This document shows positions 17,716-52,563 of a stretch of DNA of 64,000 nucleotides, piece by piece (position 1 is the stretch's first letter; each line of letters opens with the position of its first letter). The notes beneath the pieces were generated by a model, which was given only the letters and a program-made list of their open reading frames with translations, made no database searches and had not been told where the DNA came from. Position numbers and translations under genes: made by a program. The DNA lies in the NCBI GenBank assembly GCA_964016885.1, contig OZ024743.1:205096001-205160000 (forward strand), written 5' to 3'. The stretch is from Eledone cirrhosa (taxonomy: Eukaryota).

Positions 17716-17762
<47 letters not shown>

Positions 17763-24061: not shown

Positions 24062-24112
<51 letters not shown>

Positions 24113-24264: not shown

Positions 24265-24339
24265 ATATAGAATTCACAAGAATCAAAGCATTTACAAGTG
24301 AATAAATGCTTTGAACATAGCTTTGATTCTTGTGAATTC

Positions 24340-24344
<5 letters not shown>
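24265..24344. repeat. Inverted repeat, 25-bp arms, ending a TA-embedded unique island (about 24107-24344)
   Basis: ATATAGAATTCACAAGAATCAAAGC ... GCTTTGATTCTTGTGAATTCTATAT with a 30-nt spacer. Confidence 0.9.
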
Positions 24345-24378
<34 letters not shown>

Positions 24379-24380
<2 letters not shown>

Positions 24381-25820
24381 GAATCAATGGCCGAGCTAGA
24401 GAAGAAATTCCAAACATGGAAGCACGGCCTAGAATCAAAAGGCCTTAAAATTAATCTGGCTAAGACCAAAGTTCTAGTTTGTAGGAAAGAAAATAAGGCG
24501 GCGATCCCTTCCGGGAAGTGGCCATACTCAGTGTGTAGGAAAGGCGTAGGTAGAAACTCCATTTTGTGTCAGAAATGCAAAGTATGGGTGCATAAAAGAT
24601 GTAGTGGGATCACAGGTAAGCTAACCAAGAACATAGATTTCACATGTGGCCGGTGCTCTGGTGCAATAAGTAGCAGCAAGTGCCCACAAAATACTAGCTC
24701 TTTCAACTGCGCAGAGGGCTCTATAGAAATAGTGGACAGCTTCCGTTGCCTGGGTGACAAAATCAGCAGTGGGGGAGGGTGCTCTGAACGTACAGTAGCT
24801 AGAGTCAGAACTGGATGGAAAAAGTTCAGAGAGCTTATACCACTATTAGCCGCTAAAGGGTTCTCCCTAAAAATGAAAGGCAGGTTGTATAATGCCTGCA
24901 TACGAACAGCAATGTTGCATGGCAGTGAGACCTGGGCATTGTGTGCAGAGGATATATGCAGACTAGAGAGGAACGAAGCTTGCATGCTCCGCTGGATGTG
25001 TAATAGTAATATACGTGAACGGCAAAGCATAAACGAACTAAAGAAAAAATTAGAAATAAGAGGGATCAGATGTTGTTTACTCGAGAGAAGGCTACGTTGG
25101 TATGGACACGCGATGCGCATGAAAGTCGATAGCTGTATAACAAAGTGCAGGGCAATAAAGATAGACGGTAGCCACGGAATAGGCAGACCTAGAAAAACCT
25201 GGGACGAGCTGATAAATTCCGACCTCACACACTTACACCTCTCCAAGACAATGTCACTGGACCGAGACCTTTGGCGGTACTCAGTAACAGAGAAGACCCG
25301 CCTTACCTAAATACAAAGTAAAACCTACTACAGTCAGTAGGCATCACTAACAAAATACACCCCCGTCCCACCACCCCCACCCCATCCACACCGCCCCTTT
25401 CAATGTAAAGTTATGTTGGTGCCACAACATCCAGGCCGAAACAAATGAGATCGTGTAGGTGTCATGACAAAAAAAACACTCAGTCCACGCTGTAATGTGG
25501 CCGTGTAGGCAACACGGTAAAAACCTCCCAGCCCCACACTGTAAATGTGGTTGGTGTTAGGAAGGGCATCCAGCTGTAGAAAACCCGCCAGACAGTCCAC
25601 GCTGTAATGTGGCCGTGTAGGCAACACGGTAAAAACCTCCCAGCCCCACACCGTAAATGTGGTTGGTGTTAGGAAGGGCATCCAACTGTAGAAAACCCGC
25701 CAGACAGTCCTATGCGAGCAATGACAACCACTCTTGCCTCAAGTGGGAAAACTCCCGTCCAAACCCATGCAAGCGTGGAACACGAACGTTAAACGTTGAT
25801 GATGATGATGATGATGATGA
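24379..25820 (+). mobile_element. RTE LINE (family A), 5'-truncated
   Basis: ORF 24387-25310 is the uninterrupted Cys-rich insert plus RTE C-terminus. 3' UTR has a 112-bp tandem duplication and a (GAT)n tail. Confidence 0.9.
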
Positions 25821-25978
25821 TATATATATATATATATGTATATATATAGAGAGAGAGAGACATCTGTGTATATATATACATACATACGTGTATCATCATT
25901 CATCATTTTATTTTACCTCCGCTTTTTCCCTGCTTGCAAGGGTGGGTCGGGAACTGATTCTGGCTTGATTGACATCAA

Positions 25979-26036
<58 letters not shown>

Positions 26037-26543
26037 TGTATATATAGATGTATATATAGATGTATATATATATGTAGATGTATATATATATATATATATA
26101 TAGATGTATATATATATATTTATTAAAATAACAGATTAAAGTTTAAGCAAAGAATCGCTGCTTTCACCCTTAACGGGATTTTCTGAAACTAACAAAGTCA
26201 ATCTGTGAACGCAGAAGTGGATATTTCAAAAAACGTTGCAACCGGAGGAAGACAGGAAGACGATACTTTGGTTCGTGGAAACATTTCCTGGCAAAGAACG
26301 GGAAAAAACGAATATAATACGTCATTATTTGGAGCGGTGAAAAACAATTACACGCAAAGACAGAATCACGTTTATGGTATAAAAGAAGTCATAGACTAAT
26401 ATTCTATTAGGTGGTTCATAGAGACGTTCTCTGACAATGAACGGAAAAAACGAAGATAATACATCATATGTGGAGCATAGAGAACAAATGCACGCAAAGA
26501 CAAAATCACGTAAATGGTATACTGAAGTCGTAGACTAAAATTC

Positions 26544-26575
<32 letters not shown>

Positions 26576-26600
26576 TAGAGGTATATATATATATATATAT

Positions 26601-26922
26601 GGAAGCACATGGCTTAGTGGTTAGAGCATTGGCCTTGCAATCGAAAGGTTGTGAGTTCAATTCTCAGACCGGGTGATGTGTTTTTTCCTTGAGCAAGACA
26701 CTTTATTTCACATTGCTCCAGTTTACTCAGCTGTAGAAATGAGATGATAGGGACTGCAAAGTGGTCGTGGAGGTGCCATGGCAAAAAAAAGCACCCAGCA
26801 CTCACTGTAAATGAGGTTGGTGTTAGGAAGGGCATCCAGCTGTATAAATCAAGCCAGAGTCAGTTCCCGTCCCACCCTTGCAAGCAGGGAAAAGCGGACG
26901 TAAAATGATGATGATGATGATG
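26601..26922 (+). mobile_element. tRNA-derived SINE with RTE-B 3' tail
   Basis: A box TGGCTTAGTGG, B box GAGTTCAATTC, central CCTTGAGCAAGACACTTT motif. Tail CCCGTCCCACCCTTGCAAGCAGGGAAAAGCGGACGTAAAA(TGA)n matches the end of the LINE at 1-795. Confidence 0.85.
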
Positions 26923-26979
26923 ATATATATATATATATATACATATATAGAGGTATATATATATATATATATATATATA

Positions 26980-27013
<34 letters not shown>

Positions 27014-27028
27014 TGTATATATATATAT

Positions 27029-27076
<48 letters not shown>

Positions 27077-27462
27077 AGATGTATATATATATATATATAG
27101 ATGTATATATATATATATAGATGTATATATATATATAGATCTATATATATATATATATAGATGTATATATATATATATATAGATGCATATATATATATAT
27201 ATATATATATAGATGTATATATATATATAGATGTATATATATATATATATATAGATGTATATATATATATATATATATATATAGATGTATATATATATAT
27301 ATATATATAGATGTATATATATATATATATATATATAGATGTATATATATATATATATATATATAGATGTATATATATATATATAACGAAGGAAATGTGG
27401 TAAGGAACCAGATGGACCATAATGCACCAAAGTACTCAATACTTAGGGTAGTAGAGTGGGTA

Positions 27463-27597
27463 ATAGGAACGAGTGGGACCCCGACGGCTGAGCTCAAGCC
27501 GTTTCGACGGCTAATTCTGGACGCGTTTAGAATTAGCGTCCAGAATTAGCCGTCGAAACGGCTTGAGCTCAGCCGTCGGGGTCCCACTCGTTCCTAT
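27463..27597. repeat. Perfect inverted repeat, 62-bp arms, 11-nt loop, containing the 3' half of a hammerhead core
   Basis: Arms 27463-27524 and 27536-27597. Each contains GAAAC-GGCT-tgagctc-AGCC-GTC. Confidence 0.9.
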
Positions 27598-27616
27598 ATA
27601 TATATATATATATATA

Positions 27617-27672
<56 letters not shown>

Positions 27673-27746
27673 TGTGTATATATATATATAGAGAGAGAGA
27701 GATGTGTGTATATAAATATATTTTGATGTATATATATATATATATG

Positions 27747-27801
<55 letters not shown>

Positions 27802-27954
27802 GTATAGATTTTGAGTTTATGTTGGTTGTATACCAACACCTCAGTATGCAGGCTGGAGCACTCGACGAAGTGCGCAGGTTGGTTTGGTTACTCCGGAGTA
27901 GTGTAAAATAAAGTTAAATAAAAGTCAAATGATTAAAATTTAGCTTCGTTTATT

Positions 27955-28009
27955 ACTGCTATATATATTTCAGTGACAGCCATCTTTGACTGTTACCTCT
28001 TCAGGCAGT
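27955..28009 (-). ncRNA. Minimal type I hammerhead ribozyme motif (mirror copy)
   Basis: Reverse complement of 28230-28284. Confidence 0.75.
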
Positions 28010-28229
28010 TTGAATTAGTATGGTATAGACAAGTACATATGTTGTTTAGGTGTATAATATTGTCAATACTCTGATATGCCCAGTTCCTTGTTGGGTTGTT
28101 AATTTACTGAGGAACTGACTCCAGTTCCTCAGTGAATTAACAACCCAACAAGGAACTGGGCATATCAGAGTATTGACAATATTATACACCTAAACAACAT
28201 ATGTACTTGTCTATACCATACTAATTCAA

Positions 28230-28284
28230 ACTGCCTGAAGAGGTAACAGTCAAAGATGGCTGTCACTGAAATATATATAGCAGT
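28230..28284 (+). ncRNA. Minimal type I hammerhead ribozyme motif
   Basis: ACTGC-CTGAAGA-GGTAACAGTC(aaagat)GGCTGTCACT-GAAA-TATATA-TA-GCAGT. Stem I ACTGC/GCAGT, palindromic stem III, immediately followed by AATAAA. Confidence 0.78.
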
Positions 28285-29038
28285 AATAAACGAAGCTAAA
28301 TTTTAATCATTTGACTTTTATTTAACTTTATTATACATACGTATATATAGATGTATACAAATATACATGCAGACACACACACACACATATAGGTGTATAC
28401 AAATATATACACTTATATAAATATAGCTATAGATATATACACATATATATCATCATCACCATTATCATTTTATGTCTACTACTTTTCCATACTGGAACAG
28501 GTAGGACCACACACACAAACACACAAGTTATATACATTGGATTTTAAGTAGGCTATACATAGATCTACTGTACTATAAGATTATTTCTTCTTTGCCCACT
28601 TATTCTCGAGGGAGGGCGGAGCGGGCGTGAGAGCAGAGTCCTCAAGTACGCCTTCTATCGAGTCCTGTGAGAAGCAACTGTCTCCAATTGATCCAGCTAG
28701 ATCCTCTAGTGAAACCAGCTGAGCTTAAGATGTTTGTTTTTTTTTTCTCAAGAGGAAAGAAATGTGTATTTCAAATAGTTTTTTTTTGTTTCTAAAATAT
28801 TTGAAAGACATATTTCTTTTACCTTAAGGAAAAACAAAGAGACAGGTTTAAAATGTACAAGAAATAATATGAATGGAAAAATATGGATGATATAAAATCT
28901 GTCAAAAACCGAAATGACAGAGTTAATGACAATTATCGGTAGGCAAGGCATTGACAATTATTTGAAGTTCTAAAAAAAAAAAGTGAAAAAGAAAAGAATA
29001 ATAATATAATAAAAAAAAGGGCTAAAAAGGCTAAAATT

Positions 29039-29189
29039 CTAAATAGGTGATAATGAAAATTTTTCATGTTCCGTGAGTTCAGGATGCCAAAAATCAACAA
29101 TCAATACAATTCGGTTCTTATTTCCTTGATGCCAAACTTCATGTTCAAAAGAATCATCAAATATTATGAATTCTCCTTCTTTCCAATTC
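29039..29189 (-). CDS. ASPH: Aspartyl/asparaginyl beta-hydroxylase, last coding exon
   Basis: NWKEGEFIIFDDSFEHEVWHQGNKNRIVLIVDFWHPELTEHEKFSLSPI-stop matches the ASPH C-terminus (DDSFEHEVW, WHPEL). AG acceptor, phase 2. Confidence 0.95.
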
Positions 29190-30059
29190 CTGAGTGAATA
29201 AACAAACAAAATGGAGGATGGTTAAAATGGTTTTGGAAAAGCTGGTACAAACATCATCATCACCACCAACAACAACACCATCACAACCACCACCACCTCC
29301 AACACCATAATCACTACTGCCAACACCATCACCACCCATATTTAAGGGTCTTCACCCTATTTTATTACATCTCCAGGTATGAGTACATCATTCTGTATAA
29401 TTAACATCTTCTCAGCCCGTCGTAAAAGTCCAAAAGATCAGCTCCATACACAGTGTTTGTTGACATTTAAAAGCTGTGATTCAGCTCCCTAATTTAAGAC
29501 AGTAAAAGTTGTCACAGTCTCTTGGTTTAATGCTTTAAAACATCTAGCTGGTATCTGGGAGATATGAGGTTCAATTCCTCATAACAACCGATGGCAACTT
29601 CTTTTTCTGTCTTTTAAGGGTCTTCACCCTATTTTATAAGCTATTTCATACCATCCCTGTTCATGAGCACATCACACTTTTTACAAACTTTATCATCTCA
29701 GCACTTTGTAAAAGTCTGAGAGACTGGCTATATTTGCATGATTTTTATTTATTTATATAAACATATATATTAATAGAAAAAAAAAAGAACCAATATCATC
29801 ATGTGTGTGTATATATATATATATATCTATCATCATCATCATCATCATCATCACCGTTTTACGTCCGTTCTTCCACACTAGCATGGGTTAGACGGGTTGT
29901 CCTGTTGTGGGCAGTAGCTGGTCAGCTGACCATGCCTTGCTCATACGGGGACTGATTCTGACTTGATTTCTACAGCTGGATGCCCTTTCTTAAACCAACC
30001 TCATTTACAGTGAGTGCTGGGTGCTTTTTTCCGTGGCGCCTACACGTCCACTTTACATT

Positions 30060-31100
30060 ATAATAATAATAATAATGAAATTATTGTGTACAGTGCTCAG
30101 GTGCACTACAACTCATCAAAGGTGCATGTATAGTACATAGAATAATGTACAAATGTCAGGAAAATGAACAGTGTACAAGTCATGAAATACATGTGTGCAT
30201 GTGTATGGAGCGGGGATATCAGGTATAGTATTGGCGAATCTCAGGAACCATGGAGGTCTTAAAGGATGCAGTGTCTCGACAGCTAACAACTGATGCAGGG
30301 AGTTTGTTCCATGCTTCAGCAAATCTGAGCGTGAAAAAATGTTTCCGAAAGTTATGGCAGCTGTGCTGTTTTCTGATTTTGTTGGCATGCCCATGTGTGT
30401 TAGACACATGAAAATCAAAAAGGTGCTCAGGGTTGTTGTTGGCAAGATGGTTAATAATTTTGTGGGTGTTTACCAAGTCAGTTGCCAGACGTCGGAGCTT
30501 CAATGTATCAATGCCCAGGGAAGCAAGGTATTCAGAGTATGGTAGATGCCTGATGGAAGGTATTCGCTTGTTTGCATGTCTCTGAACAGTTTCCAGACGG
30601 TCAATGTTCTGAGCAAGATAGGGGTTCCAGACTGGTGATGCAAATTCTAAGTGTGGCTGCACCATAGCTATATACAGCTTTAAATAGATAGCTGAAGAGC
30701 GGCTGGCAAAGGTCTTGCTGAGTGATGATAAGACACCCCCGGCTTTCTTGACAATTTTAGACGTGCTTCGTCCAACGCAAATCACTGCTGACAGTAATGC
30801 CCAGGTCACATTCACAAGAAGACTTCTTGATATTAGTGTTGTGGAGGGAGTATGTGGACGCTGGGTTTTTACTCCCAAAATGCATAGTAGTAGACTTGCC
30901 CACAGCCAAGTTGAGTTGTCAGTCCATGATCCATTGTTGCATTGTGTCCAGATCAGATTGCAGGAAAGATCTATAATGTTCAGGATCTATCCTTTTTATC
31001 TCAAGGTACAGCTTGATGTCATCGGCATATTTCAGTACTGTGGCATTCTTTAAGTTGGCATCTATGTCATTAATGTATGCCACAAACAAAAGGGGGCCAA
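30060..31100 (-). mobile_element. CR1/L2-group LINE 3' fragment, degraded
   Basis: LGPLLFVAYIND...YADDIKL; LYIAMVQPHLEFASPVWNPY...LETVQR; FFTLR...WNKLP; (ATT)n tail. Confidence 0.85.
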
Positions 31101-31215
31101 GAACATACACACACATGTATATATACACACATACACATTATATATTCCTGAATGCACTTTATAGCACTTGATTTATGAACAAAAATAAACAATTTAGTAT
31201 AATATAAGACATTAC

Positions 31216-31346
31216 CTTGTTTTATTGCCAACTCTTATTTTAACACCAGATGGCACTACTAAACCAAGATGGGCTCTTAAACGACAGTTTGTTGGACCAC
31301 AATGTGGCCACACATGACTTCCTGGTTTCATGATGGAAAATTTCAC
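31216..31346 (-). CDS. ASPH: ASPH exon (catalytic domain)
   Basis: VKFSIMKPGSHVWPHCGPTNCRLRAHLGLVVPSGVKIRVGNKT(R). AG/GT junctions, 131 bp. Confidence 0.95.
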
Positions 31347-31619
31347 CTGCCATACAAAAGATAAAGATGTTTCAATACAAACAGTGACATTTACCCAAGT
31401 TATCTCAGTTAATCTTGCTATATGTGACATGTAGGTGTTATATAAACAGTGACATTTACCCAGGATAGCATGCAGTGGGATGAAACCCAGGACCTTCAGA
31501 TTACAAAGCAAACTTCTAAACCATTCACCTATGTGGTGCCAACTTTTGAAGATAAGGGCACTGGATGAGAGCTGACCTATGATTAAACAATATTAGCAGT
31601 AATAAAAAGATATTCTTAC

Positions 31620-31711
31620 CTGTCCTCTCTTACAGTTGGTAGCTTCATGTAAATGATCTAGTAATGCACACGTTTTAAGGACATTTAAACAACCTTTTTT
31701 CATTCGCTCTC
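31620..31711 (-). CDS. ASPH: ASPH exon
   Basis: (G)ERMKKGCLNVLKTCALLDHLHEATNCKRGQ. AG/GT junctions, 92 bp, phases fit neighbours. Confidence 0.92.
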
Positions 31712-31907
31712 CTGTAAATAGAAATGAATAATGGTAAGATAACCTGACAGATACTGATCAGGAATAATAATGACGATGATGATGATGATTATAAATGGTG
31801 ATGGTGGTAGTGGTGGTGATGATGGTTATGATTGTGGTGGTGGTGACAGTGACAACAATGATCACAATTATCATTGTCTTTCCATTATTACATATGTACA
31901 CCCATTA

Positions 31908-32180
31908 AAGGCACATGGCTTAGTGGTTAGAGCATTGGGATTGCAATTGTGAGGTTGTGTGTTCAATTGTCGGACCGGGTGATGCGCTGTGCCCTTGAGC
32001 AAGACACTTTATTTCACATGGCTCCAGTTTACTCAGCTGTAGAAATGAATTGTAACGTCACTGGTGCCGGTCTTTGCCTTTCCCTTGGACAACATTTGTG
32101 GTGTGGAGAGGGGGGATTGGTATACATGGGTGACTGCTGGTCTTCCACAAACAACCTTGCCTTGACTTGTGCATCGGTGA
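31908..32180 (+). mobile_element. tRNA-derived SINE
   Basis: GGCACATGGCTTAGTGGTTAGAGC head, GTTCAATT B box, CCTTGAGCAAGACACTTT core. Confidence 0.75.
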
Positions 32181-32216
32181 TGATGATGATGATAAGAGAT
32201 AAAGAAACTGACTCAC

Positions 32217-32352
32217 CTCGTTGGTAGAGTGTCATCTGTCTCCACATTCCTCTTTCTAGAAGATTCTCAGCTTCCTCAATAAAATCTGACCCAGAATAAT
32301 CAACATATTCTAAAACCTCGTCTCGAATCATTTCCCAGTTATCTTGAAGAGT
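32217..32352 (-). CDS. ASPH: ASPH exon
   Basis: TLQDNWEMIRDEVLEYVDYSGSDFIEEAENLLERGMWRQMTLYQR(G). AG/GT junctions, 136 bp. Confidence 0.93.
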
Positions 32353-33497
32353 CTAAGAAAATAATAAAATGAGAAAATAAAATAAAAAAAAAAAGAAATT
32401 TGGTTTAAATTAGATCACACACACACACAAGATTTTTTGAAAATATATTTCATTACAAACATATTTTTATATTATTACATAAACAATAATTGGATTGGCA
32501 GTAATCAGCAGAGCATTGGACAACATGCTTTGTGGCATTTAGTTATGGCCCTTTACGTTTTGACTTCAAATCTTGCCGATGTTAGCTTTGCCTTTCTTCC
32601 TTACAGGATTGATAAAATAAGGTACCAGTAATTCACTGAGGTCAATTTAATTGATTTTACCCTACCCCCAAAATTGTTGATCCTGTGCACTGCCCCAAAT
32701 GTACGGAAGTTGTAAGGGAACGCCGCTCACCCAAGTGGATGACGGACTTTGACATGGCGTGATATGATGGGATGATTGATCCCTGAGGTGGATGAGTGGG
32801 TGGGGCTAGGGTATTGGAAGTGCAAGGGAGGTCTTGCCAGAAGCGAGGGGCCAGTGACATCACATTGGAAGTGTGCACGGTCTTTTCAGGCTCTTTTTTC
32901 GTCATGAAGCTACAACATGTGGCTATGTGTGTGCATGAATGAGTGTGTGAGGCTTGCTGTATTCTTTGGCTAGACATAAAACAGGTGAACATCCGAGCAG
33001 GGAGATTCAGTCAGGACACTTGTGGAGACGCAAAGGTAGGTCCTTTTGATTTTTACAACAATGCCTAAATGAGAAACCAGTATATGGATGTCTTTGTCAT
33101 GTTTGCTTAGATTGTCATGTACTGAGTCAGGTGACATGGCTATGTCATGTACTGAGGCTAGACAGGTGTCATGGCCATATCTTGTTCATATGTTCAATTT
33201 TTGGCTTGGATTCTACAGCTGGATACCCTTCCTATTGTCAACCCCTTTTATAGCATATACTGGGTGTATTTTATTGTGGCACCAGCCCCACCACCTTACA
33301 GGGTGAACTGAGTGCCTTTTGTTGTGGCACCAGTACTGACACCTTACAGAGTGGACTGAATACTTTTTGTTGACACCAGCACTACCACTTTACAGAGTGG
33401 ACTGGGTGCTTTTAATCATGGCAACAGCACTACCTTATTAAAACACTAGGGTAATGATATTTAAAAATGAAATGAAAAAAAAAAAACGCTAACAAAC

Positions 33498-33635
33498 CTT
33501 AATTGTTGTTTGATAAGGTAAATCTTCAGGTTCCCACCAAGGTTTACCTGTAAGTCTATCAACATTATATAAAGAGCGTTGGTCTCTGGAAAGGAATAGT
33601 TTTTTGGCAGCTCCATCATTGTATACTTCCTTGGC
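33498..33635 (-). CDS. ASPH: ASPH exon
   Basis: AKEVYNDGAAKKLFLSRDQRSLYNVDRLTGKPWWEPEDLPYQTTIK, containing the conserved QRSLYNV...PWW motif. 138 bp. Confidence 0.93.
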
Positions 33636-34289
33636 CTGGAAATAAAATAAATATTACATATATTAAGAGTTAGTGGCTTATCTTCCTTTTCTGTTCCTTC
33701 TAATGGCGTATTTTTTTTTTACAAGATACTACTCCATTATATTTATATAATGTCAATGGTTTTTGTAAGATATTACTCAATTATATTCATATAATGTCAA
33801 TTTTTTAATAAGATATTGCTCAATAATGTTTATGTGTCAATAGTTTTTCATGACATTGTCAGATTTTCTATATTGAATATGTTTGTTTTTCATTTCAGTT
33901 ATTTTATATTGGTCTATCTGTATGATGTCACTTTACATTGACTATTAAATGTTGTTTTAATAATAATAGTGAAAATTATTGTGTACAGTGCTGAGGTGCA
34001 CTATAAAAAAAAAAAATTCAGTCTCCTCAAATGTCTTGAACGTAGATTAGATTCAAGGAAGAGTGCTGAAGATTGGATAGAATTGCAGTCATCTTAGATC
34101 TTAGAGTCTTGTTTATTTCAGTATAGCTGCAATCTCATAAATCTCTCTCAAGCCCAGAGGCTCATCAGAGGCTTATCCCAGTTTCATGGCGTTAAGCGAC
34201 AGAGAGTACAAGACTCACTCCTAGACAGGGTTAAAGTCTGTCTCAAGCCCAGAGGCTCATCAGATCAGTTTGTACCAATTTCGTAGTGT

Positions 34290-34781: not shown

Positions 34782-34831
34782 ACAATCTCATCAACAGTCA
34801 CCAGAAACATAATTAAAATGTATTTATTTAC

Positions 34832-38385: not shown

Positions 38386-38418
<33 letters not shown>

Positions 38419-39210: not shown

Positions 39211-42200
39211 TGGATATTTTATATCCTAAAACAATCTATTTTTCTACATAAAAACATTCTTTTCATTAATTTTCGTATGATGCGAGGCCAATTTTTGTAA
39301 GATTTCTTTAATTCCTAATTCCTCAGCTATCCTACCACCAATGCATATGTCATCTTCAGAAATAATTATACCTGTAAAATCTCCCAACACATTGTCCATA
39401 GCTTACTGAAAGATAGCACTTACTGTTTTTATACCACATGGTAGACATATCCATATCAGTATGAAATACTAACAGGTAATATTTCTTGAGCTTCATTAGA
39501 TATTTCAATTTAAGCTGCTGTGAAGGCAATCCATCTGGGAGAGCAGTCACTCTGAATAAAAACTAATACAGGATAGAGTGGACAACCTTTAGTGCTAGTG
39601 GCACAAATAATGCCTCCAATCTATGTTGTAAAGTGATTGGTGATGGGAGAGAATATATGAGAGGAATTTCATGCTGCAAAAACTGGCGATGGGCCTGCGA
39701 CATATTCTGGGAGGTGTGGGATGGACATATAAAGATAGTGTATCCGAGACCCCGAAGGAGGGTTTGGAAGGAAGAAAACTTTGACATATATATGTGTGTA
39801 CCATATATTTGAATATATGCTGAGGAATATCTGACCAAAAAAACCTTTAGTAAAATGGAGTGGATGGTCTGCTTATATACACCATCTAAACAATACGTTG
39901 ATTAGCTGCCTCAGTTTATAAAAGGGGTTTGGATTTTTGCCCATTTCTCAAACATAAAATAGGAGGTGGGTCAGTTTATATTCTAGTATATATATATGTA
40001 CGTATATATTGGTAAAGAACCATGAGAACTTAGGACATTTTGTGCTGGTGAAAACCTGCATACCAACCTAAAACTTGACCTGCTCCATTCACATATTCCT
40101 CCTCCCTTATTATAACCCCTTAATAGCTATTTTTGCTATTATTGCGTGCCCATCTATCCCCTGTAGTAGCTTTTCTCAACATCATTGTACACTCCGACTC
40201 CTCCTTTATCTGGGATCACCTCCAACCACCCTAAATCTTCACATTATCTACTCAGGCTCACCACCCACCCATCCTACCACTCTAGATACCCCTTCTCTCA
40301 CTTTTACTAACCCTGACACAATGGTATCCTACTCTACCACCCAACCACCACCCCTCACTCCGATGTACCCCACCCACCACACATTTTTGACAAAACCCCA
40401 TCCCTATCAGTAGGTAGAGAGGGTTATTCAGTTGAGTCAATGACAACCTTTCTAGTGTTGATGATTTACATTATAAACGATCACCCAGTAACCTGTCAGA
40501 CAAAGAGACTCTTCAATTCTGACAACTTTCCTAGTGTTGGTACCGCAATAAAATGTACTCAGCAGAGCATGGGATTGTATGTCAGACTCCTGGCCCAACT
40601 AAACTGTGATGACATGTCCAATGCTTGCTAGCAGGGAACGCAGACGTTAATTGATGATATATATATGTCAATGTATCCTAGTTTTAAGGATAGGTAGAAC
40701 TTATCCTTGTGTGTTGTAAGTTCCTTATTCTATCAAATACTTTTTTTTATATCATTCTAATATATGAAGGTAGTTTCTCATGTTGAAGACAACATATAAA
40801 TGTTTATTAATATATGTGCATGCTTCTTTAACAGATGTTCAATATACATAATGGCAACTAAAAGGGTTGACATCGGGAAGGGCATCAGTCTGTGAAATAT
40901 CTCAAAACTTCCTCTCTAACTATGTTGACATGGAAAAGTGAATGTAAAACGATTGTGATGATGATATAATTATCTCCTCTTGATTTTTAATCCTTTTAAA
41001 TCCCATCAGAGTGATCTCCCTTGTCATGTATCGGCAACATGAAATTTAAACTGACCAATCAGCGTCTCTCCACAATTTTCAATCTGCTGTTCCACGTTTT
41101 CTTATCAAAACGGCTGACTCACCAAAGATGTTCCAGTTTTGGCCAGATTGCTTTTAACTCAGAAAATGGAATTATTCATTTTCTATCATCCATTATTCAG
41201 AACCTTTTCTCTCTTCTGTTACTACACACACATGAAGGACTAGCGTCCAAAATGTTAAGACCCTCTTCCTGCTATTTTCAAGCGTTAACCTAATATTCCT
41301 TCCATATACTGTACCGATTGTGTTGTTATTTCTGTTTACCTTATTGCATATATGAAAACTGGGTTTAAGAGGAATCCGAGGTGGTGGTGCAGGAGAAAAG
41401 ACTGCTTTGGTATGGATATGAGATGTGCATGACAATGGTCGTTGGGTGAAAAAGTACCAGGTAATCCCTGTGAAAGGAAGCCACAGAGAAGTTAACCAAG
41501 AAAGACTTGGGTGGCGGTTGTGAGAGCTGACCTCAAATCACTGAGGAGACGACGAAGGAACGTGACGAGTGGAGAGATGTCGTGTTGAGAAGGACCTGTC
41601 CAACCCATGCAAGTGTGGAAAAACGGATGTAAAAATGATGATGATGATGGTATATATATATACTATCATCATCATCTTTATATCTACCTTTTCATATTTG
41701 CATGGTTTGTATGAGTCTTTTCCAGGACAGCCTCCTTATACTTGTTGCATTCATTTATCACCTCTTCTATGAGTTTCAGCATCTTCAGATCCGCTATTAC
41801 CCAAAACTACTTTGATGATCTTCTGCATCATCCTATCACTTGAAAACCAGGCTCTTCTTCGTCCAATGGTCACCTTCCACATATATCATGTGGCTAGACC
41901 TTCTCTCTTACACTTCTTCAACTTATTTCTGCCTCTTCATCATTTGTGTGCACTAACATTAATGCTGGCCTCATTTCTTTCTAACCGTTGCATATCCTCT
42001 GCATTCACTGCCCATGACTCACTGTCATACAACACCACACTTCATATGTACCATACTATCTATCCTTCAATCAGAGATAGAATCCTTTCATTATGAACAG
42101 AGGTAGTAGCTCTCTAAGCTTTTTCCATCTTGTTTTTATTCAGGTTACTATGCTTTCAGAGCATCTTCCTTCATCATCATCACCATCACCGTTTTACGTC

Positions 42201-44490
42201 CGTTCTTCCACGCTAGCATGGGTTAGATGGGTTGTCCTGTTGTGGGCAGTGTCTGGTCGGCTGACCATGCCTTGCTCATACAGGAACTGATTTGGCTGTT
42301 AATTTGGTTACCTAGGTAACAGAAGCTATCAACTACTTCTATGTAACATCTTTTGGAGTGAAAAAAGTTGGATTCATTAGTACTCTTCCTACTAACTCCT
42401 CCTGTGTGCCTGCCATGCTACACACAATATGTCTTTTTAGCCTACCTGTGACCCCCCTACACTTTTTGTGTACCCATAGTTTATACTATATGGAGTTTCT
42501 ACCAACTTCATTTCAATAAATTTCCTTGATCATAGCACAATCCTGTCTTTTTTCATACTTACTAAAACTTCAGTCTTTGCTCTGAAGCATTTCAATTCTA
42601 GGTTTTGTTTCCACCTTTGGGATTTCTTCCACAGATCTTGTTATAAGTACTAAATCACCTTCAAACACCTCAGACTAACAGCCAGTCTTGAACTCTTTGT
42701 TGTGGCCTGGAGAGTTATATAACTCCTATTTTGGCCTTCTTCAATAGCTTGTTTAAGTGTTGGTTCTACTGAAGGTAGTCCCTCTTTCACTCAGTCCTTA
42801 CATTTAGCAGCCTCTTTCTTCTGAGTGTTATTCTCAACACACTTCCCTCACATTGATACTCTTCTTTGCTATATAGAATACTAGATAATCTCATCATACA
42901 ATATTGACAAACTTCTTGCTTTCAGTTGTTCTCTGTGCTATGTAAACCTGATACCTCACTTCTATTTAAGTTACTTGATATTGTTTTTTGCTGCCCTCTT
43001 TCTTCCTGTTTTCCAAGCCTGTCTAGCTTATATGGCTCTTTCTCCCAGTCTTTCCACACCTGTTTTCACCTTATAATGGCTCTGCCTTTCTCCCAGTCTT
43101 TCCAAGCCTGTCTCCAGCTTATAATGGCTCTATCTGCAGTACTATACTACTACCATGTCACCTTCCATTTATCTGCTACATTAGTCGAACCACAGATTTT
43201 GTCAGCAGATGGGTTATGGATGCAAATGATAAGAGATAGGTATGAGAGATGGTGGAGATCCTGGTTTGGGAGTTCAATATTGGTCAGGAGATACATATAG
43301 GGGACGATGGTGATAGGTGATGAGACAAACAACCAGAGATAGGTATTGATGGAGATCTTGAAGAGGTAGATTTAGGTACATGTGTAAGGGGACAACCTGT
43401 CTAACCCATGCTAGCATGGAAAATGGACATTAAACAATGATTATGATGATATATAATATGTATATATACACACACACACACACACATATATATATATGAG
43501 TATAATTTTGTTGCTTTGGTAAATTAGTGCTTTTGATACAAACCTGTTAAAACTGGCTCTGGTTTGATGAAATAAAAACACTTTGAAAGGTTCCTTAATA
43601 ATGAAATAATTATTTATGTAAATCCCACCAAATTCTTCTTTAGAAATATGGTGAGAGAAGATTCAAATGACTGAACCTGACATAAGAGATGATCACAAGT
43701 GGAAAGAAGCTGTGCTGGAAAGGGTCTGTCTAACCCATGCAAGCATGGGTTGTAATGATGATGATGATGAAAGACAGGATACCATCAGGGAAGAGGCCTT
43801 CCTCAATATCTCAAAAAGGGGCTGGGCAAAAATTGTGTAAGGTGCACAGTACAAGCAATGGATGCAGAAGAGATTGCAGGTATGATGATAGAGAAGGTGA
43901 GTTATGTTTGTGGATGATGTACATGAGAAATAACAATTTTCCAGGTGGCTCCCTAGAAATTGTTGACAGCTTTTGCTATTGAGGTGACCTAAACAGCAGT
44001 GAGGAAGAATGCTCTAAAAGTGTGATAACTGGGGTAAGAACAACCTGGAATCATTTTAGAGAGCTAGTATCTCTTCTGAACCCAAAAGGTTTCTCTCAGT
44101 GAAAGGTAGACAGTATGATGCTTGTGTGCAAACTGTGATGCTTCATAGCAGTGAGACATAAGCCTTGATTGCAAAGGTTGGATAGGTTGTCACAGACCAA
44201 GTCAGTACTTAATCAGAACCACTGATCTCTTAGATGTGCCAGAGGCTGCATCTTGCTTGCATATGTTTCCACAGAGTGCACTGGGTGCATTTTATCATGG
44301 CACCAATACTAAGGAGGCTGTCAAGTCTTTGACACAACTAATGCGTCTAAAAAAGAAACTGGAAAATATCTGTCAATTAAATTAGCAATTGGAATACTTT
44401 CAAAGGTATATTCTACTTCTATTAATTCCATGCTGGCCAGAAAAGAAAAAAAAAATGGGAAAGGGTGCAACAAGAAAAGGTTTTACTAAC

Positions 44491-44627
44491 CTCTTTAAAT
44501 AAATTTTTAGCATCCTCATTACGACCTAATATCAAGTTGGTGATTCCAAGATCATTTTTCACATCAATGCTATTTGGGAAACGTAAATTCAGGAAGGTCA
44601 AAGTTTTGAGAGCTCGGTTGGTCCAGC
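44491..44627 (-). CDS. ASPH: ASPH exon (TPR region)
   Basis: (G)WTNRALKTLTFLNLRFPNSIDVKNDLGITNLILGRNEDAKNLFKE. 137 bp, phases fit. Confidence 0.9.
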
Positions 44628-44802
44628 CTACATCAACATGAAACAATAGCTAACAGACATGAAATAAAAACAAAAAACTTTGTGCCCAAGACATTTCTTG
44701 AAAGCAGATCTGCAACAACAATACTTTAATAGGGTATTAAATGCTTGCAGAAATATTTGTTAAGTCAAAGATATATATATATAAACCAGTCAAATATAAA
44801 CA

Positions 44803-44861
<59 letters not shown>

Positions 44862-45973
44862 AATGCATGCATCCCAATTAGTCAATTACTAAAAGTACTG
44901 CTAGAGATGGAAAAAGTAGACAAAGGTACCTCTGTCTACTTTTATTTATCTCCAGGAATAATTTACCTGATTTTCTCAACTATTATTTATAGTAATCAAC
45001 TATTATTATAGTAATTTGCGTTGGGTTGCACACATTTCAAACGCTTCTTAAGTCAAATGCTTTAAATATACACACATATATATATATATACACAAATATA
45101 TATACATATATATGCACACACACATATATATATGTACAAATATATATATATATGACTGGTTTAAGTCACATGTGTCACTGCCTTCAAGAGTTTTAATAGG
45201 TCATATTGACTTTAGTACATATTTCAACCTGATACATATATCATTTTGCTAAACTGTCCAGTAATAGGATATATAGGAATACAACAGACACATACAATGA
45301 CCTTCTGAAGTTTCTTTCTACCAAATTCTATACATATGGTATCGATCAGTTTGAGACTAAAGTCCAAGGGGTCACACAGTGGGATTGAAATTGGAAACAC
45401 ATGGCTACAAAGTAAACTTCTTAATCACAGAGTTATGTCTGCTGCCAATAAATCTTGCAAAAGAAATACAAAAATTTGGTCTCTGTATTTCTTAACCTTT
45501 TTTTAATATTTGATTTTATTGACATACCAATCGAAACCAGTAATATTTGACAAAATTTAAATCCATTTAATGTAACAAATACAAAATTCTGTTGGATTAA
45601 AGAAAAAAAAAAAAATCAATATTAAATATACCTCCGTGCTTTTCACTTTTACTCTTTGATTTGCATGGAGATTTACCCCCTGTTTTCAACTATATATATA
45701 TATGTTCTTATCTTAATATACATAACATTGTACCTCTAAATGATATTTTGAATGATAGTGCTCTCACGTTGTGAGTTTGATTCCTGGAACAAGCAGTGTG
45801 TTGTATCCTTGAGCAAGACACTTTTATGATGTACATAGTCCACTCACCTGGAAACTATAAAGGGCTGCAACAACAATAGTGCTTTTGCCTTTCCCTTGGA
45901 CAATATTGGTAGTGAGGAGAGAGTTAAGCTAAGCCAAGCCCAGCTAGACAAAATTGTGATAATCCGATCCTGG

Positions 45974-47053
45974 ATCAGATCCAATAATACAGGCAGTCTG
46001 ATAGTGCTGACTAATAATACAGACATCAGATCCAATAATACAGGCAGTCTGATAGTGTTGACTAATAATACAGACATCAGATCCAATAATACAGGCAGTC
46101 TGATAGTGTTGACTAATAATACAGATATCAGATCCAATAATACAGGCAGTCTGATAGTGCTGACTAATAATACAGACATCAGATCCAATAATACAGGCAG
46201 TCTGATAGTGTTGACTAATAATACAGATATCAGATCCAATAATACAGGCAGTCTGATAGTGCTGACTAATAATACAGATATCAGATCCAATAATACAGGC
46301 AGTCTGATAGTGTTGACTAATAATACAGACATCAGATCCAATAATACAGGCAGTCTGATAGTGCTGACTAATAATACAGATATCAGATCCAATAATACAG
46401 GCAGTCTGATAGTGCTGACTAATAATACAGACATCAGATCCAATAATACAGGCAGTCTGATAGTGCTGACTAATAATACAGACATCAGATCCAATAATAC
46501 AGGCAGTCTGCTAGTGTTGACTAATAATACAGACATCAGATCCAATAATACAGGCAGTCTGATAGTGTTGACTAATAATACAGACATCAGATCCAATAAT
46601 ACAGGCAGTCTGATAGTGCTGACTAATAATACAGACATCAGATCCAATAATACAGGCAGTCTGATAGTGTTGACTAATAATACAGACATCAGATCCAATA
46701 ATACAGGCAGTCTGATAGTGCTGACTAATAATACAGACATCAGATCCAATAATACAGGCAGTCTGATAGTGTTGACTAATAATACAGACATCAGATCCAA
46801 TAATACAGGCAGTCTGATAGTGTTGACTAATAATACAGACATCAGATCCAATAATACAGGCAGTCTGATAGTGTTGACTAATAATACAGATATCAGATCC
46901 AATAATACAGGCAGTCTGATAGTGTTGACTAATAATACAGACATCAGATCCAATAATACAGGCAGTCTGATAGTGTTGACTAATAATACAGACATCAGAT
47001 CCAATAATACAGGCAGTCTGATAGTGCTGACTAATAATACAGATATCAGATCC
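45974..47053. repeat. 51-bp minisatellite, 21 copies, intronic
   Basis: Unit ATCAGATCCAATAATACAGGCAGTCTGATAGTGYTGACTAATAATACAGAY; 45974 + 21x51 = 47045. Confidence 0.95.
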
Positions 47054-47236
47054 GATCCCGGATTATATATATATATATGTATTTGTGTATATAAAGCGTG
47101 TAGTTCAAAAAGAACCCTGTAACTCACCTGATGCTTGGTTAATACATCAGATTCATAAAGAAACCTGAAGGGGGTCACTACCTGCTCAACTGATTCACAC
47201 TAAACCAACTTGCCAACATTTTCTTCAGTATGTTCT

Positions 47237-47270
<34 letters not shown>

Positions 47271-47732
47271 TGATTTTGTGTGTATGCAATTATATATATA
47301 TTAGTGTTAAGGCATGTTAAGAGTGTTTACTCGGTAAGCGAATGAAGTGTGGGATCTTGTTGATTGACTCCTTCCTTTGTTACCATATTTCTAATGAAAT
47401 AACTAATCATAAAATTAAAATTTTCCTCCATAAGTATGCACATTTTAAAATGATCAGTTGTGTATTGTGAAACCCGTGTGGTAGTGGGGGTTTCAGTACG
47501 GTTTGTATCAAAAGAGTTAATAAAACATTTCAACAAACCTGCGTACAGTTAAATTCACTTTCTTTTTAGTATATGTTTTTTTGAACAATGTGTTTGTAGG
47601 GGTTATGGACTTAAAGAGACATCCAAAATAACAATAAAAGGCTCACTACATGTTATATGCTTCCATCTAGACTATGTACAACATTTTAACAACAATTCTC
47701 CTAATTTCCATCTCAAATGAAAAGTAATAAGA

Positions 47733-47991
47733 TTAACCTTTTAGCCTTTAAACCGACCATATCCAGCCAGAACTCTCTCATCTTTTCCTGTTCATCTGGC
47801 TGGATACAGCCAGTATTATCTCACCTCTTTCTGTTCAAACCGGTTGTAACCGGCTGCTCATACTGATGTTAAGGTATTGTTCTCAAAATAAATAACATCA
47901 CCAAAATCTCATAGATTCAATATTTTGTGAACTAAAACCTTTACCGTGAAAATACAATAGTAAATATAGAGTAATGTATGTAAAGGGTTAA
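47733..47991. mobile_element. piggyBac-type MITE, degraded
   Basis: TTAA-CCTTTTA ... TAAAGGG-TTAA termini. A similar element lies at 50631-50819 (TTAACCCTTT...AAAGAGTTAA). Confidence 0.5.
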
Positions 47992-48520
47992 CAGCATAAT
48001 AAATACATAATTATATCTGTGTGTGTATCATATATATATTCATCTAAAAATGATTTTTCATATAGACACAAACCATAAAGTGGATGCAGCATGGTTAAAT
48101 ATTTAAGAAGTTCACTTTACAATCAATAGGTCCCAGGTTCAATCCCACTGTGTGACAACTTGGACATATGTGATATACCATAGCCTCAAATCTGCCTATG
48201 TCTTGTGTGTGATACTTTGGTTAACTGAAACTGCCTGGAAGCCCGTTAGATGGACTATATCTGTAAATCTAACAACTAGCTTTTTATACACTGTGTCATG
48301 CTGAATCTCCCTGAGAATTACATTAAGTGTATACGTGTCTGTGGAATACTCAGCCATTTATGTTAATTTCATGAGTAGGTTGTTCCATTGACCAAATAAT
48401 TGGAACATTGGAACACTGTTGAAACTGATGGAGGTACATGTCATTCCATGAATTTGAAATGCCAGAGCAGAGTTGATTGAATCAACATTCAGTTTATTAT
48501 TAGTTGTTTATCAACCCAGT

Positions 48521-48790
48521 GGAGGCACGTGGCCTAGTGGTAAGGGTGTTGGATTTATGATAATAATGTTGTAGGTTTGATTCCTAGACTGAACTGTGCG
48601 TTATATTCTTGAGCAAAACACTTCATTTCATATTGCTGAAAATGAGTACCAGCAACAGCTGGGGCTTTAACCTTGCAATGTATCGTCCTATCCAGAGGGA
48701 AGTCTTGTACTCTCAGTCACTTCCCACCACCAAAACTAGAATAAGCACCGGCCTGATGAGCCTCCAGACTCAAGACAGACTTGAGACGTT
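48521..48790 (+). mobile_element. tRNA-derived SINE
   Basis: GGAGGCACGTGGCCTAGTGG head, GGTTTGATTCC B box, CTTGAGCAAAACACTTCATTTC core. Same family as 34290-34781. Confidence 0.75.
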
Positions 48791-48828
48791 AGAGGGAAGC
48801 AAGGCAAAGGTGTCCATGCTGAACAATT

Positions 48829-49093
48829 CATTTAGACTGTGTTGTATAGGATAAAACTAAATACTTTAACACATTTAGACTGTGTTGTATAGGATAAAAC
48901 TAAATACTTTAACACATTTAGACTGTGTTGTATAGGATAAAACTAAATACTTTAACACATTTAGACTGTGTTGTATAGGATAAAACTAAATACTTTAACA
49001 CATTTAGACTGTGTTGTATAGGATAAAACTAAATACTTTAACACATTTAGACTGTGTTGTATAGGATAAAACTAAATAGAGCAACACATTTAG
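48829..49093. repeat. 43-bp minisatellite, 6 copies
   Basis: CATTTAGACTGTGTTGTATAGGATAAAACTAAATACTTTAACA at 48829, 48872, 48915, 48958, 49001 and 49044 (last copy diverged at its end). Confidence 0.95.
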
Positions 49094-49179
49094 TCAAATA
49101 ATCTATTTTTGTAACCCTTATACCATATACCAGGTGTTAAAATCTTTAAAAAAAAACATGCCTGTAAATAAATTCTTAC

Positions 49180-49417
49180 CTCTGAAACGTTGCTTGTCAG
49201 CCAGTATCAAACCACTTTTCAATAACAAAGCATCAGGACTATCAGGATTACTTAGAAGTACTTCCAAAACCTGAATACCTTGCTGAAGAAGAGTGTTGCT
49301 GGACTGTAATTCAGCTAACTCAAGCAAAGCACCAGAGCGACCGTATGCAGCCCGAGGACTCTTAATGGACTTTTCAAGAATTTTGTTAAAAGCATTCAAA
49401 GATTCCTTAGCAAATCC
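49180..49417 (-). CDS. ASPH: ASPH exon (TPR region), the most 5' exon recognisable in the window
   Basis: GFAKESLNAFNKILEKSIKSPRAAYGRSGALLELAELQSSNTLLQQGIQVLEVLLSNPDSPDALLLKSGLILADKQRFR(G), with the SPRA.YG...LAE...SN..L motif. 238 bp. Confidence 0.9.
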
Positions 49418-51499
49418 CTTCAAAAATAGAAGATAGGAATCAAAATAAAAATTGTAAACTCTGGCATCAAGTGAATTTTTTCAGTGTTTTTTTTTTTCAT
49501 TTTGTTTTATTTGTAAATTGTTTGGTTACAGTGAATTATTTTATTTAAAAAAAAAAAAAAATCAACATGCTTAAAATGTTATATATATATTTTTAAAAAT
49601 TTTGGACAGGGTGGACAGGGGTCATTTATTTATACAGTATTTTTATTCTCTTTTATTTTTAATCTCAAGGCAGGAATTAGTGAAGTAGTCAATGGTTGAA
49701 TTTGTTTTTTTTTAATGCCATAGAAATGATAGTTTTCTTCTTGTGATTTCTTCTTTTTATTTTAGAGTTAAATGGAATTTAGTAAAGCAATGCTAATATG
49801 TTAAAAATTGGGAAACTAAAACGACTTATTTATTATTATTTGTTTTTTGTTTGCTTTTTTTCCCTTTAAATCAGAATGCAGCAAAAATTAATATGAAGAT
49901 AAGTTTAGTAGAATTTTGTTTAAAATGTGTTAAGGCTAGGATGCAGTTAAGAATATTGTTCTTTTATCATCAATTCATTGGTATGTTCATGTGTGGACAT
50001 CATATTAACTTCACAAAACAGAAAAAAGATTTATACATATACAGTGTGTGTGCCTGTCTGTTTGTCTTTCTGCATGTATATGTATTTTAACTAAATTGGT
50101 GAACACACAATTGTCTTTCAGTACATATATGTAGTTTGACTAAGGCGGTGAACATACAATTGTTAAATGAATCATAATAGTCTTCGTACAATTATAACTG
50201 ATCAGCAATGAAGAAATTGAGTGGTTTCTGCTGGAACTCTTTTGGAAAGGACCTGAGAAGATTGTACACATACATCATACATACAAAACACATACATGTG
50301 AACTTTGTCTCCTGCAGACAAGTATACAGAGCAGAGGTGAGCACCTCCTGAAGTCTTTTCTCACAGCTGATAATTATCATCATCATTAGAATTAAGGCAG
50401 TGGAGTGGCAGACAAAAATGGCTTCTAGTATTTACTTGTAATGTTTTACATTCTGAATGCAAATATTAAAGTTTATCTTTACTCAAGATGCAAGGGAAGA
50501 AGAGCCAATAAAATAAGTATCAATAACCAATTCAATCAACAACATCCCACTCTATACAGATGAGTCTCTTGGTGCTAATAAAATAATAATAATAATAATA
50601 ATCATCATCATCATTACTAAAATTAACTGTTTAACCCTTTTGCTTACCAACCCAGCCAAAACCAGTTCTGGTTCAATGAGATTAAAACAACCCATTTTAA
50701 AGGTTTCCTATTTAAATTAAAATCTTCCAACATAATTTTATATAAAAACCTTACATTAAGTTACTACCATAGTCAAAATTCTTCATTGATAAATAGAAAT
50801 AAGGTCATGAAAGAGTTAAGTTACTTTCTTTATAATGAAATAATTAATAATTTTAGTAAATCTCTCAAAATTCTTCATTAATTAATAGAAATAGAGTGTA
50901 TTTCATTAGAAATGTGGTCATGAAACAATTATTTTCTCATTTGCCAACATATTTTCGGCTGTGTTGCATTGCAATAAAATAGCAGAAATTTACTCCAGAA
51001 TTCCATTTAACTGCAGTTAGGCCAACAATTTTGGAGGAGGGGAAAGTTAATTAAATTGACCTTAGTGCATTGCTGGTACTTTATTTTATTGACCCTGTAA
51101 GGATGAAAGGCAAGGCTAATCTTGGCGAGATTTGAATTCAGAAATATATGCCACAAAGAATATTGCCCAACACTCTACTGGTACTGCCAAATGATGATGA
51201 TGATGATGATGATAAATAATAATAATGGTTTCTGATTTAGGCACAAGGCCAGCAACTTTGTGGGGAGGTGAAAGTCGATTTAATAATCATAACAAAAACA
51301 ACAACATTATGAAGAACACTTTCAATACTCTAAAAATGACAACACCAACACTGCACATACCTAAACAATACTGCACCTACCCAAACAACACTGCACCTAC
51401 CTAAACAACACTGCACATACCTAAAGCACAGAGTTATGCTTGGTAATGCTGTGATGTCATGCAATATTAATATAACTAATATTAATTATAATAATAATT

Positions 51500-51675
51500 G
51501 TTTCTACTTTTGGCACAAGGCCAGCAATTATCCCAGTGTATTACTGGTGCTTAATTTTATCGACCCCGTAAGGATGAAAGGCAAAGTTAACCTCGGCGGG
51601 ATTTGAACTCAGACCGTAACTCCATGCTGCAAAGCATAGCGTCTGACCCTTTACCAATACTGCCAATCCATCACC
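51500..51675 (-). mobile_element. tRNA-derived SINE of a second family
   Basis: GAGTTCAAATCCCGCCGAGGT B box followed by CCTTTCATCCTTACGGGGTCGATAAAATTAAGCACCAGT. Related copies at about 32500-32700 (+) and 51040-51190 (-). Confidence 0.7.
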
Positions 51676-52505
51676 AAATTAATAATAATAATAATAATAA
51701 TAATATATCGACTTGAAGATCAAAATTGCCTTAATGTAGTCTATAGCACCTGACACCAGAATTACAAATTTCTTTTGGGCACTGCACATATACTCTCAAG
51801 TCTCAAATAATCGCTCCCCACCTCCTTGCTTATTTATTTTTTAGATCTCCTCTCTTATTCCACCCCATCCTGCTTATTAAATTTTGCTAATCTATCTCCA
51901 GCGAAATTTTATTTTGATTAGTAACATTCCTGCGACAATGAATTTTATACATTAAACAATACACAAAAAGTACATTACTAGAAATCCAATATGTTATAAA
52001 ATAAATAGGATGGGTTGGCGTCTCAATATGTAAACTAAACAACTAATTTTGGTTTAAAAAAAAAAAAATCAATGAAGACAACCTAGAAAAATTACAGATT
52101 TTTTAATCCCCCCCCCCCCTTATTTGGGACCCAAGAATACTCAGGAATGTACTGTTTGTCTAAGGTCCTTGTTGAGACATGGCGGGCAGCAGAAGATATA
52201 GTAATTATATTTACTATGTAAACCACCAATAATATTGATGATGATGATGACAATAATAATTATAAAACAATTTATCAGAGTTGTAGCCCTTTCTGATTCC
52301 TCTTTCAATATTGAACTCTAGATGTTCCAACTGAACATCACCTATCTGCTAGGATTCAATTATTTAATAAATATTCTATAAAAAATTATAAAGGATATCA
52401 TTTGGATGTGTGTTTGTATACATATATACACACATACATATATATATATTTCGTTTCTGAATTTGTTTAGCAAGATTCTTTATCTGAAATCGTGTGTTGA
52501 AACCG

Positions 52506-52563
52506 ATATTGTTATACTTTGGGAGGGTCATGGCAACATGACCCTCCCAAAGTATAACAATAT
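52506..52563. repeat. Perfect hairpin, 27-bp arms, GCAA loop, ending a TA-embedded island
   Basis: ATATTGTTATACTTTGGGAGGGTCATG-GCAA-CATGACCCTCCCAAAGTATAACAATAT. Confidence 0.92.

Follow-up and report, generated by a model that had tools for sequence, protein, structure and literature searches.

The 64,000-nucleotide stretch of the TA-rich Eledone cirrhosa genome analysed here (assembly GCA_964016885.1, contig OZ024743.1, positions 205,096,001 to 205,160,000 of the forward strand; hereafter the window, numbered from its first letter) carries a large Penelope-like element (PLE) arranged head-to-head with an inverted copy of itself and four small islands, flanked by TA repeats, each of which ends on the right in an inverted duplication. 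A preliminary description made from the sequence alone had placed these fold-backs at 24265, 27463, 27907 and 52506 with arms of 25, 62, 211 and 27 bp, and an exact inverted-repeat scan recovered all four: 24265-24289/24320-24344 (island 1, 25 bp), 27463-27524/27536-27597 (island 2, 62 bp, 11-nt loop), 27907-28104/28135-28332 (island 3, 198 bp, or 211 bp when one mismatch and a further 12 bp are included, 4-nt loop) and 52506-52532/52537-52563 (island 4, 27 bp, 4-nt loop). When mismatches were tolerated, the arm of island 3 lengthened to 216 bp with two mismatches. Fold-backs are far more abundant in the window than expected by chance: a scan allowing mismatches found six short-loop inverted repeats with arms of at least 20 bp, whereas 60 local dinucleotide shuffles gave 0.05 on average (maximum 1, longest arm 21 bp). 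A right-hand (TA)n adjoins four of the six (P ~0.001, one side considered), the window containing 73 merged TA tracts.

The four fold-back islands

All four islands share a single order of parts, namely (TA)n, a unique tail, an arm, a loop, the inverted arm and (TA)n. Each is asymmetric in the manner of a head-to-head, 5'-truncated inverted copy with a tail on one side only, the polarity being known for islands 2 and 3 only. With the TA ends placed manually, the tails of islands 1 to 4 measure ~155, 76, 96 and 55 nt. TA repeats flank every island on both sides; a 9-bp direct repeat (27798-27806 and 28337-28345) brackets island 3 as a candidate target-site duplication (TSD) and (AT)6 on either side of island 4 is compatible with one, while none is discernible for islands 1 and 2.

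Island 3 (27807..28336, minus strand) consists of its tail, the 216-bp arm, the loop and the inverted arm. A complete type I hammerhead with a 5-bp stem I, a long stem II and a short palindromic stem III lies in the left arm (27955..28009, minus strand), and its mirror lies in the right arm (28230..28284, plus strand). The descriptor search that yielded these matches used a pattern of our own built around the core motifs, and its one other match, at 39330-39248, is weak; Rfam reported no hammerhead in the window at its gathering score. Island 2 (27387..27597, minus strand), made up of a 76-nt tail, the 62-bp arm, the 11-nt loop and the inverted arm, holds the 3' half of a hammerhead (stem II, GAAA, a 6-bp stem III with a palindromic loop, and a GUC site at 27483), the CUGANGA core being missing. 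Thus, of the two islands previously credited with hammerheads, only island 3 has a complete one; islands 1 and 4 have none. On the sense strand of islands 2 and 3 the tail is the 3' end and the fold-back the 5'-truncated end, and both islands look like PLE 3' ends that fold back on their truncated side.

The turn-around points of these two islands fall on predicted stems. That of island 2 lies within hammerhead stem II. In other copies of the island 3 family the sequence past 28117 forms an imperfect palindrome, which follows closely on a native 8-bp stem, and thus the turn-around of island 3 also falls on structure. The suggestion that such islands supply ribozyme-bearing hairpin RNAs is unsupported: a transcript through the island 3 palindrome is predicted to pair over 214 bp, a duplex that would bury the hammerhead, and the catalytic fold of the hammerhead itself (-9.6 kcal/mol) is not the predicted minimum free energy fold (-14.0 kcal/mol). 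Some RNA sequencing runs contain small shares of the window, which does not amount to evidence of expression.

Islands 1 and 4 are assigned to PLEs by anatomy only, and their strand (minus) is assumed by analogy. Island 1 (24110..24344) comprises a ~155-nt tail, the 25-bp arm, a nested 12-bp hairpin with 5 extra nucleotides and the inverted arm, with TA on both sides. Because the inner hairpin nests inside it, the apparent loop of island 1 is 30 nt long, and the short loop formerly ascribed to all four islands is confined to islands 2, 3 and 4. Island 4 (52451..52563) has a 55-nt tail, the 27-bp arm, a GCAA loop and the inverted arm. In a similarity search within the window, the islands matched nothing else there, including its two PLEs.

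The island 3 family was surveyed in public assembled contigs from 4 of 24 sequencing runs (X1, X4, X5 and X6). It is abundant, with 2712 X1 contigs aligned, and is present also in two other organisms (X5 and X6). Loose ends of TA/GA repeats precede 27805-27806 in X1, X4 and X5 contigs, a tail boundary in agreement with that given by the 9-bp flanking repeat, and in one contig of X5 and one of X6 TA immediately precedes 27904, where the inverted arm has its outer end. Island 3 is one member of a multi-copy family whose 3' ends are fixed, at 27806 and 27904. Four of the five X1 joints listed land at 28116 or 28113, reached from other arm positions by skipping 73-192 nt or 296 nt, and because they cluster at 28113-28116 the turn-around site of island 3 recurs. 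The two arms of island 3 have alleles in common at 27989 and 27994, where the island 3 locus departs from more than 99.5% of the X1 depth and from all of the depth listed for X4-X6; these rare alleles indicate that the arms came from one template or were later homogenised.

The large Penelope-like element and its relatives

The large PLE consists of two head-to-head copies. Copy A (2769..9198, minus strand) carries the tail, with a 3' end ~140 nt longer than that of copy B, and an open reading frame (ORF) at 6445-8937. Copy B (9199..18778, plus strand) begins with a 5'-truncated pseudo-long terminal repeat (pLTR) starting in an internal TA tract, continues with an 814-aa ORF (12631-15072) and ends in a 3' pLTR that stops at the short end. 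The 6.4-kb inversion noted in the preliminary description is borne out by an inverted copy of 6430 nt that is more than 99% identical to its partner, with few differing sites. The 3.1-kb spacer belongs to copy B and begins in the internal TA tract; the loop is part of the short-end copy. A simple fold-back was considered for this element and is ruled out: copy A extends ~140 nt further 3' than its supposed template and cannot be a simple copy of B. Comparison of the three pLTR copies did not distinguish template from copy. The uninterrupted Hydra-type ORFs of the two halves (6445-8937 and 12580-15072) are two substitutions apart, which points to a young insertion.

The 814-aa ORF matched no Pfam family but resembles 54 database proteins. 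Its motifs (RWR37, DKT115, CxCX5C673, YIG707, CxxC771 and CxH799) correspond to the set that defines the Hydra clade in PMC8557442, namely RWK, DKT, CxCX5C and CxxC/CxH motifs with a C-terminal endonuclease (EN). The element has TA flanks and one hammerhead in each pLTR (2960-3114, 12133-12287 and 18573-18727; the copy B motifs are placed at 12143 and 18583), with a 10-bp stem I and an unusually long, 116-nt stem II region; Rfam missed these long-stem-II forms at its gathering score. With the Hydra-clade elements of section 11 of the same paper it shares its RWR, DKT, CxCX5C, CxxC and CxH motifs, the GIY-YIG-like region at its C terminus, its hammerhead and its TA flanks. The element, likened to the clade by motifs, differs in its 3.3-kb microsatellite-rich pLTR and its 116-nt stem II region.

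A profile of the 814-aa ORF retrieved 92 loci, 78 from metagenomes and 14 from a genome collection, and no relatives among viral contigs. The loci L079-L092, filed under bacterial genomes, hold PLE ORFs, several with hammerheads and microsatellites, and the contigs placed in bacterial bins are likely to be animal host DNA. Eight longer contigs (92.7 kb) contain five short-loop fold-backs, whose arms measure 62-143 bp. No short-loop fold-back with an arm of at least 40 bp occurs at the other 84 loci; for the 78 metagenome loci this is not evidence either way, because short contigs probably break at palindromes. The pattern of the island 3 hammerhead had no match in a scan of metagenome contigs.

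One of these fold-backs, L081:11571-11854, has the anatomy of the islands: TA, a 67-nt tail, a 105-bp arm, a 7-nt loop, the inverted arm and TA, each arm containing a hammerhead. An identity of 97% to the pLTR lying behind a PLE ORF in L086 ties this island look-alike from another animal to a Hydra-type ORF. In the same L081 contig, an element with ~600-bp inverted arms and a 175-nt centre (8202-9544) interrupts a Hydra ORF.

Searches of the genome of that other animal (G001) show two fixed 3' ends in each of two families. For family 1, 10 of 20 matches have at least 95% identity and end at query position 231 (five), 291-293 (four) or 252 (one); for family 2, 7 of 15 have at least 93% identity and end at 143-147 (four), 208 (two) or 174 (one). 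These counts include each query once, among 291-293 and 208, respectively. Six head-to-head pairs were resolved manually, L081 and L086 each contributing two and L115 and L085 one each (the tail of the last judged from its likeness to family 1), with the inverted repeats of L079, L083 and L089 excluded as lying at contig ends without a reference. In every one of them a tail end is paired with a fixed short end. Three pairs (including L081:11571-11854 and L085) have the loop in the tail copy and two (L081:12262-12672 and L115) have it in the short-end copy; in the remaining pair, L086:10633-10733, the copies do not overlap and 9 nt are missing between the pieces. In L115, as judged by eye, an 18-bp snap-back of the short-end copy meets the tail copy at a joint where the two have 3 nucleotides in common.

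Completion of integration and its alternatives

The structures described above are largely known, and it is the refinement of mechanism that is testable. Inverted 5'-truncated copies, tails and TA targeting are described for PLEs in PMC8557442, and the EN-containing insertions of PMC3846280 and of PMC8557442 (Fig. 2) show, like the islands, a head-to-head inverted copy, a single tail, an 8-10-bp TSD, a junction palindrome and a (TA)n target. The islands differ in being units of 110-530 bp with no ORF, in having tails of 55-155 nt where those published are 30-40 nt, and in placing the loop in either copy. At least two of the four palindromes are likely to be truncated PLE insertions of this published type: the earlier view of the islands as PLE termini suits islands 2 and 3, while a PLE origin of islands 1 and 4 is not supported. 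The hammerheads resemble the minimal type I hammerheads of metazoan PLEs and retrozymes (PMC4209133; bioRxiv 10.64898/2026.07.22.740005) in their long helix II and palindromic helix III, but are non-tandem, and island 2 lacks the CUGANGA core; PMC4209133 also reports hammerhead pairs on opposite strands 100-700 bp apart.

How PLE integration is completed, with inverted copies and a one-sided tail, is an open problem according to PMC8557442 and PMC11167929. On balance we favour the reading that the islands are very short 5'-truncated PLE insertions in TA repeats, made by two-end priming at fixed RNA sites, snap-back and microhomology joining. The PLE protein would cut both strands of (TA)n and prime from each end, as it does in vitro for PAc, the Poseidon element of Anolis, with which both strands are cleaved and extended and two reverse transcription start sites bound the tail (PMC11167929). 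Of the two cDNAs, one would begin at the distant tail site and its partner at a short site lying 55-155 nt further upstream, and these different start sites would account for the asymmetric tail; the fixed ends themselves are seen in the sequence data. Synthesis would halt early, probably at a stem, and the free cDNA end would then snap back on a few bases and make sense-strand DNA complementary to the second cDNA, to which it would anneal or be joined; a joined product is present at one locus. Snap-back synthesis may be the work of a host polymerase, for instance DNA polymerase theta (Pol theta), and not of the PLE reverse transcriptase (RT). The PAc study leaves 5'-end joining to steps 'yet to be validated' and found no strand difference in start site in vitro. 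The occurrence of the loop in either copy argues for two primed ends. The broader proposition, that PLEs routinely integrate through double target-primed reverse transcription, with the tail site at one end, the short site at the other and a host-made snap-back bridging the same-sense cDNAs, is put forward tentatively and is somewhat less probable than its falsity.

Several observations weigh against the two-end reading. The evidence for two ends comes mostly from hand-picked Hydra families of another animal, and the short fixed end of the island 3 family rests on two contigs. Among the contig pieces listed, a minority of all, none shows the exact junction of island 3. The expected link between the islands and a PLE ORF in this genome did not materialise: the islands matched neither of the window's PLEs and had no significant homolog among the 92 Hydra-type loci, and their four exact motifs are absent from the supplement of PMC8557442, a weak negative since an exact match was required and line breaks interrupt that text. 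Islands 1 and 4 have neither hammerhead nor homolog, although their arms of 25-38 nt may be too short to include a hammerhead. Several family copies (L095, L096 and L099) have no inverted partner. A perfect 76-bp snap-back within the ORF of another PLE (L086:9214-9375) abuts TA without coinciding with any known fixed end, which shows that snap-back of a single cDNA occurs as well. Finally, where loops are short, fold-back in cis and annealing of two cDNAs in trans yield the same sequence.

Self-priming of a single cDNA, the mechanism offered in the preliminary description, was not a new idea, having been proposed in PMC3846280 (Arkhipova 2013) from palindromes with an inverted pLTR, a tail at one end and a 9-bp TSD, and cDNA snap-back is documented for R2 in PMC11371274. 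On this view a tail-primed cDNA would fold and copy itself, and either microhomology or endonuclease trimming at a fixed AT-rich site would bring the copy to its end on the TA flank. In its favour, the loop runs on without a break from the tail copy in island 2 (by its fold), probably in island 3, and in L081:11571-11854 and L085; the loops are short (4, 4, 11, 7 and 10 nt), both arms of island 3 have the same rare alleles, the short ends lie in AT-rich words, and L086:9214-9375 fits fully. The mechanism is partly right but insufficient by itself, since both outer ends are fixed element ends and several pairs cannot derive from one cDNA. Where the loop sits in the short-end copy (the large PLE, L081:12262-12672 and L115), self-priming provides no tail for the copied arm, nor can it produce the non-overlapping pair L086:10633-10733. 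As a general account it is therefore unlikely. R2 snap-back junctions, together with the twin priming and fold-back duplications of L1 (PMC10191854), resemble the two-end scheme in that a cDNA 3' end primes on its own cDNA ahead of 5' junction formation; the R2 arm ends on target DNA, whereas the arms here usually end at a second fixed element end.

Alternatively, a pair of target-primed cDNAs identical in sequence might anneal in trans at self-complementary words without a hairpin ever forming, and a native 8-nt palindrome at the turn-around of island 3 (with loose ends in X1, X5 and X6), the CATG turn point of island 4 and the fixed element ends on both sides are all in keeping with this. 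Independent truncation, however, would not favour loops of 4-11 nt; true self-copying is seen in L115 and L086:9214-9375, and island 1 contains two nested rounds of templated synthesis. Annealing in trans is accordingly a shade less probable than self-priming.

Host break repair at fragile TA tracts, of the Pol theta or synthesis-dependent microhomology-mediated end joining (SD-MMEJ) type, separate from and after retrotransposition, would duplicate any sequence adjoining the break, and in its favour is a fifth fold-back that the preliminary description overlooked. This double structure (54352..54461; a 31-bp arm with an 8-nt loop and a 16-bp arm with a 3-nt loop) lies in the RT region of a decayed long interspersed nuclear element (LINE) of the RTE type. 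In alignment with two other RTE copies it has ~40 extra nucleotides, made up of the left and the right flank, each copied in inverted orientation; the LINE is collinear on either side, there is no TA flank, and the inserts reproduce locally diverged bases from both sides of the break. A templated insertion of the Pol theta type would show both flanks in inverted copy around a small deletion; this structure agrees with that pattern and fits break repair with snap-back at both ends. Thus the host can likely leave such scars without a PLE, and fold-backs cannot be held specific to PLEs. Breaks are known to acquire short inversions by fold-back (PMC11724301, PMC11292364), and the few-base priming, short loops and nested rounds of such Pol theta or SD-MMEJ insertions match both 54352-54461 and the junction of island 1. 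The nested form of that junction looks like the product of repeated rounds of templated synthesis, and the 5' end of an RTE element is 30 nt away. Against this origin for the islands generally, a candidate TSD surrounds the whole of island 3, both of its outer ends are family boundaries, and islands 2 and 3 fold back on the 5'-truncated side; TSDs and fixed element ends are left unexplained by repair. Host repair is at its most plausible where islands 1 and 4 are concerned; for the set as a whole it is marginally more doubtful than annealing in trans. Sequencing or assembly artefacts beside TA tracts, to which the left-sided position of all five tails and the absence of the exact island 3 junction from any single contig listed might point, are very improbable, given that the arms of island 3 differ at two sites, that a candidate TSD and family-specific ends are present, that short-read contigs join at the same site and that the same anatomy occurs in contigs of another animal.

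A combined scheme of two-end priming and snap-back for PLEs was not found stated in the literature searched, which excluded subscription papers such as the PLE reviews of 2005-2006. If correct, the double-priming scheme would account for tail, inverted pLTR and junction palindromes by one process that needs no antisense template, and TA-targeting PLEs would generate small palindromes in large numbers across invertebrate genomes; no evidence points to a host function for the fold-back structures. Such tiny insertions hold both target junctions and the central junction in one read, and genome-wide counts of end types and of loop ownership would separate self-priming from two-end priming.

Neighbouring repeats and minor features

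RTE-like LINE copies at 19058-23900 (minus strand) and 24375-25890 (plus strand), ~95% identical and with a PHD finger after the RT, flank island 1 head-to-head; the second, which is 5'-truncated, begins at ~24375, ~30 nt from the island. A second, decayed PLE of another type lies at 60220-62905 (minus strand) between TA tracts, with RT and GIY-YIG hits and without an inverted copy, and is apparently inserted in an RTE 3' end. The tails of the large PLE and the islands, at 2769, 24110, 27387, 27807 and 52451, are all left-sided, an arrangement with a chance of 1 in 16. Minor inverted repeats at 28756-28819 and 41630-41680 are weak and were set aside. A weak tRNA-like match at the Rfam threshold (29523-29581) is probably the head of a short interspersed nuclear element, and two minisatellites, at 45974-47056 (51 bp x 21) and 48829-49093 (43 bp x 6), are young, their units being 97-98% identical.

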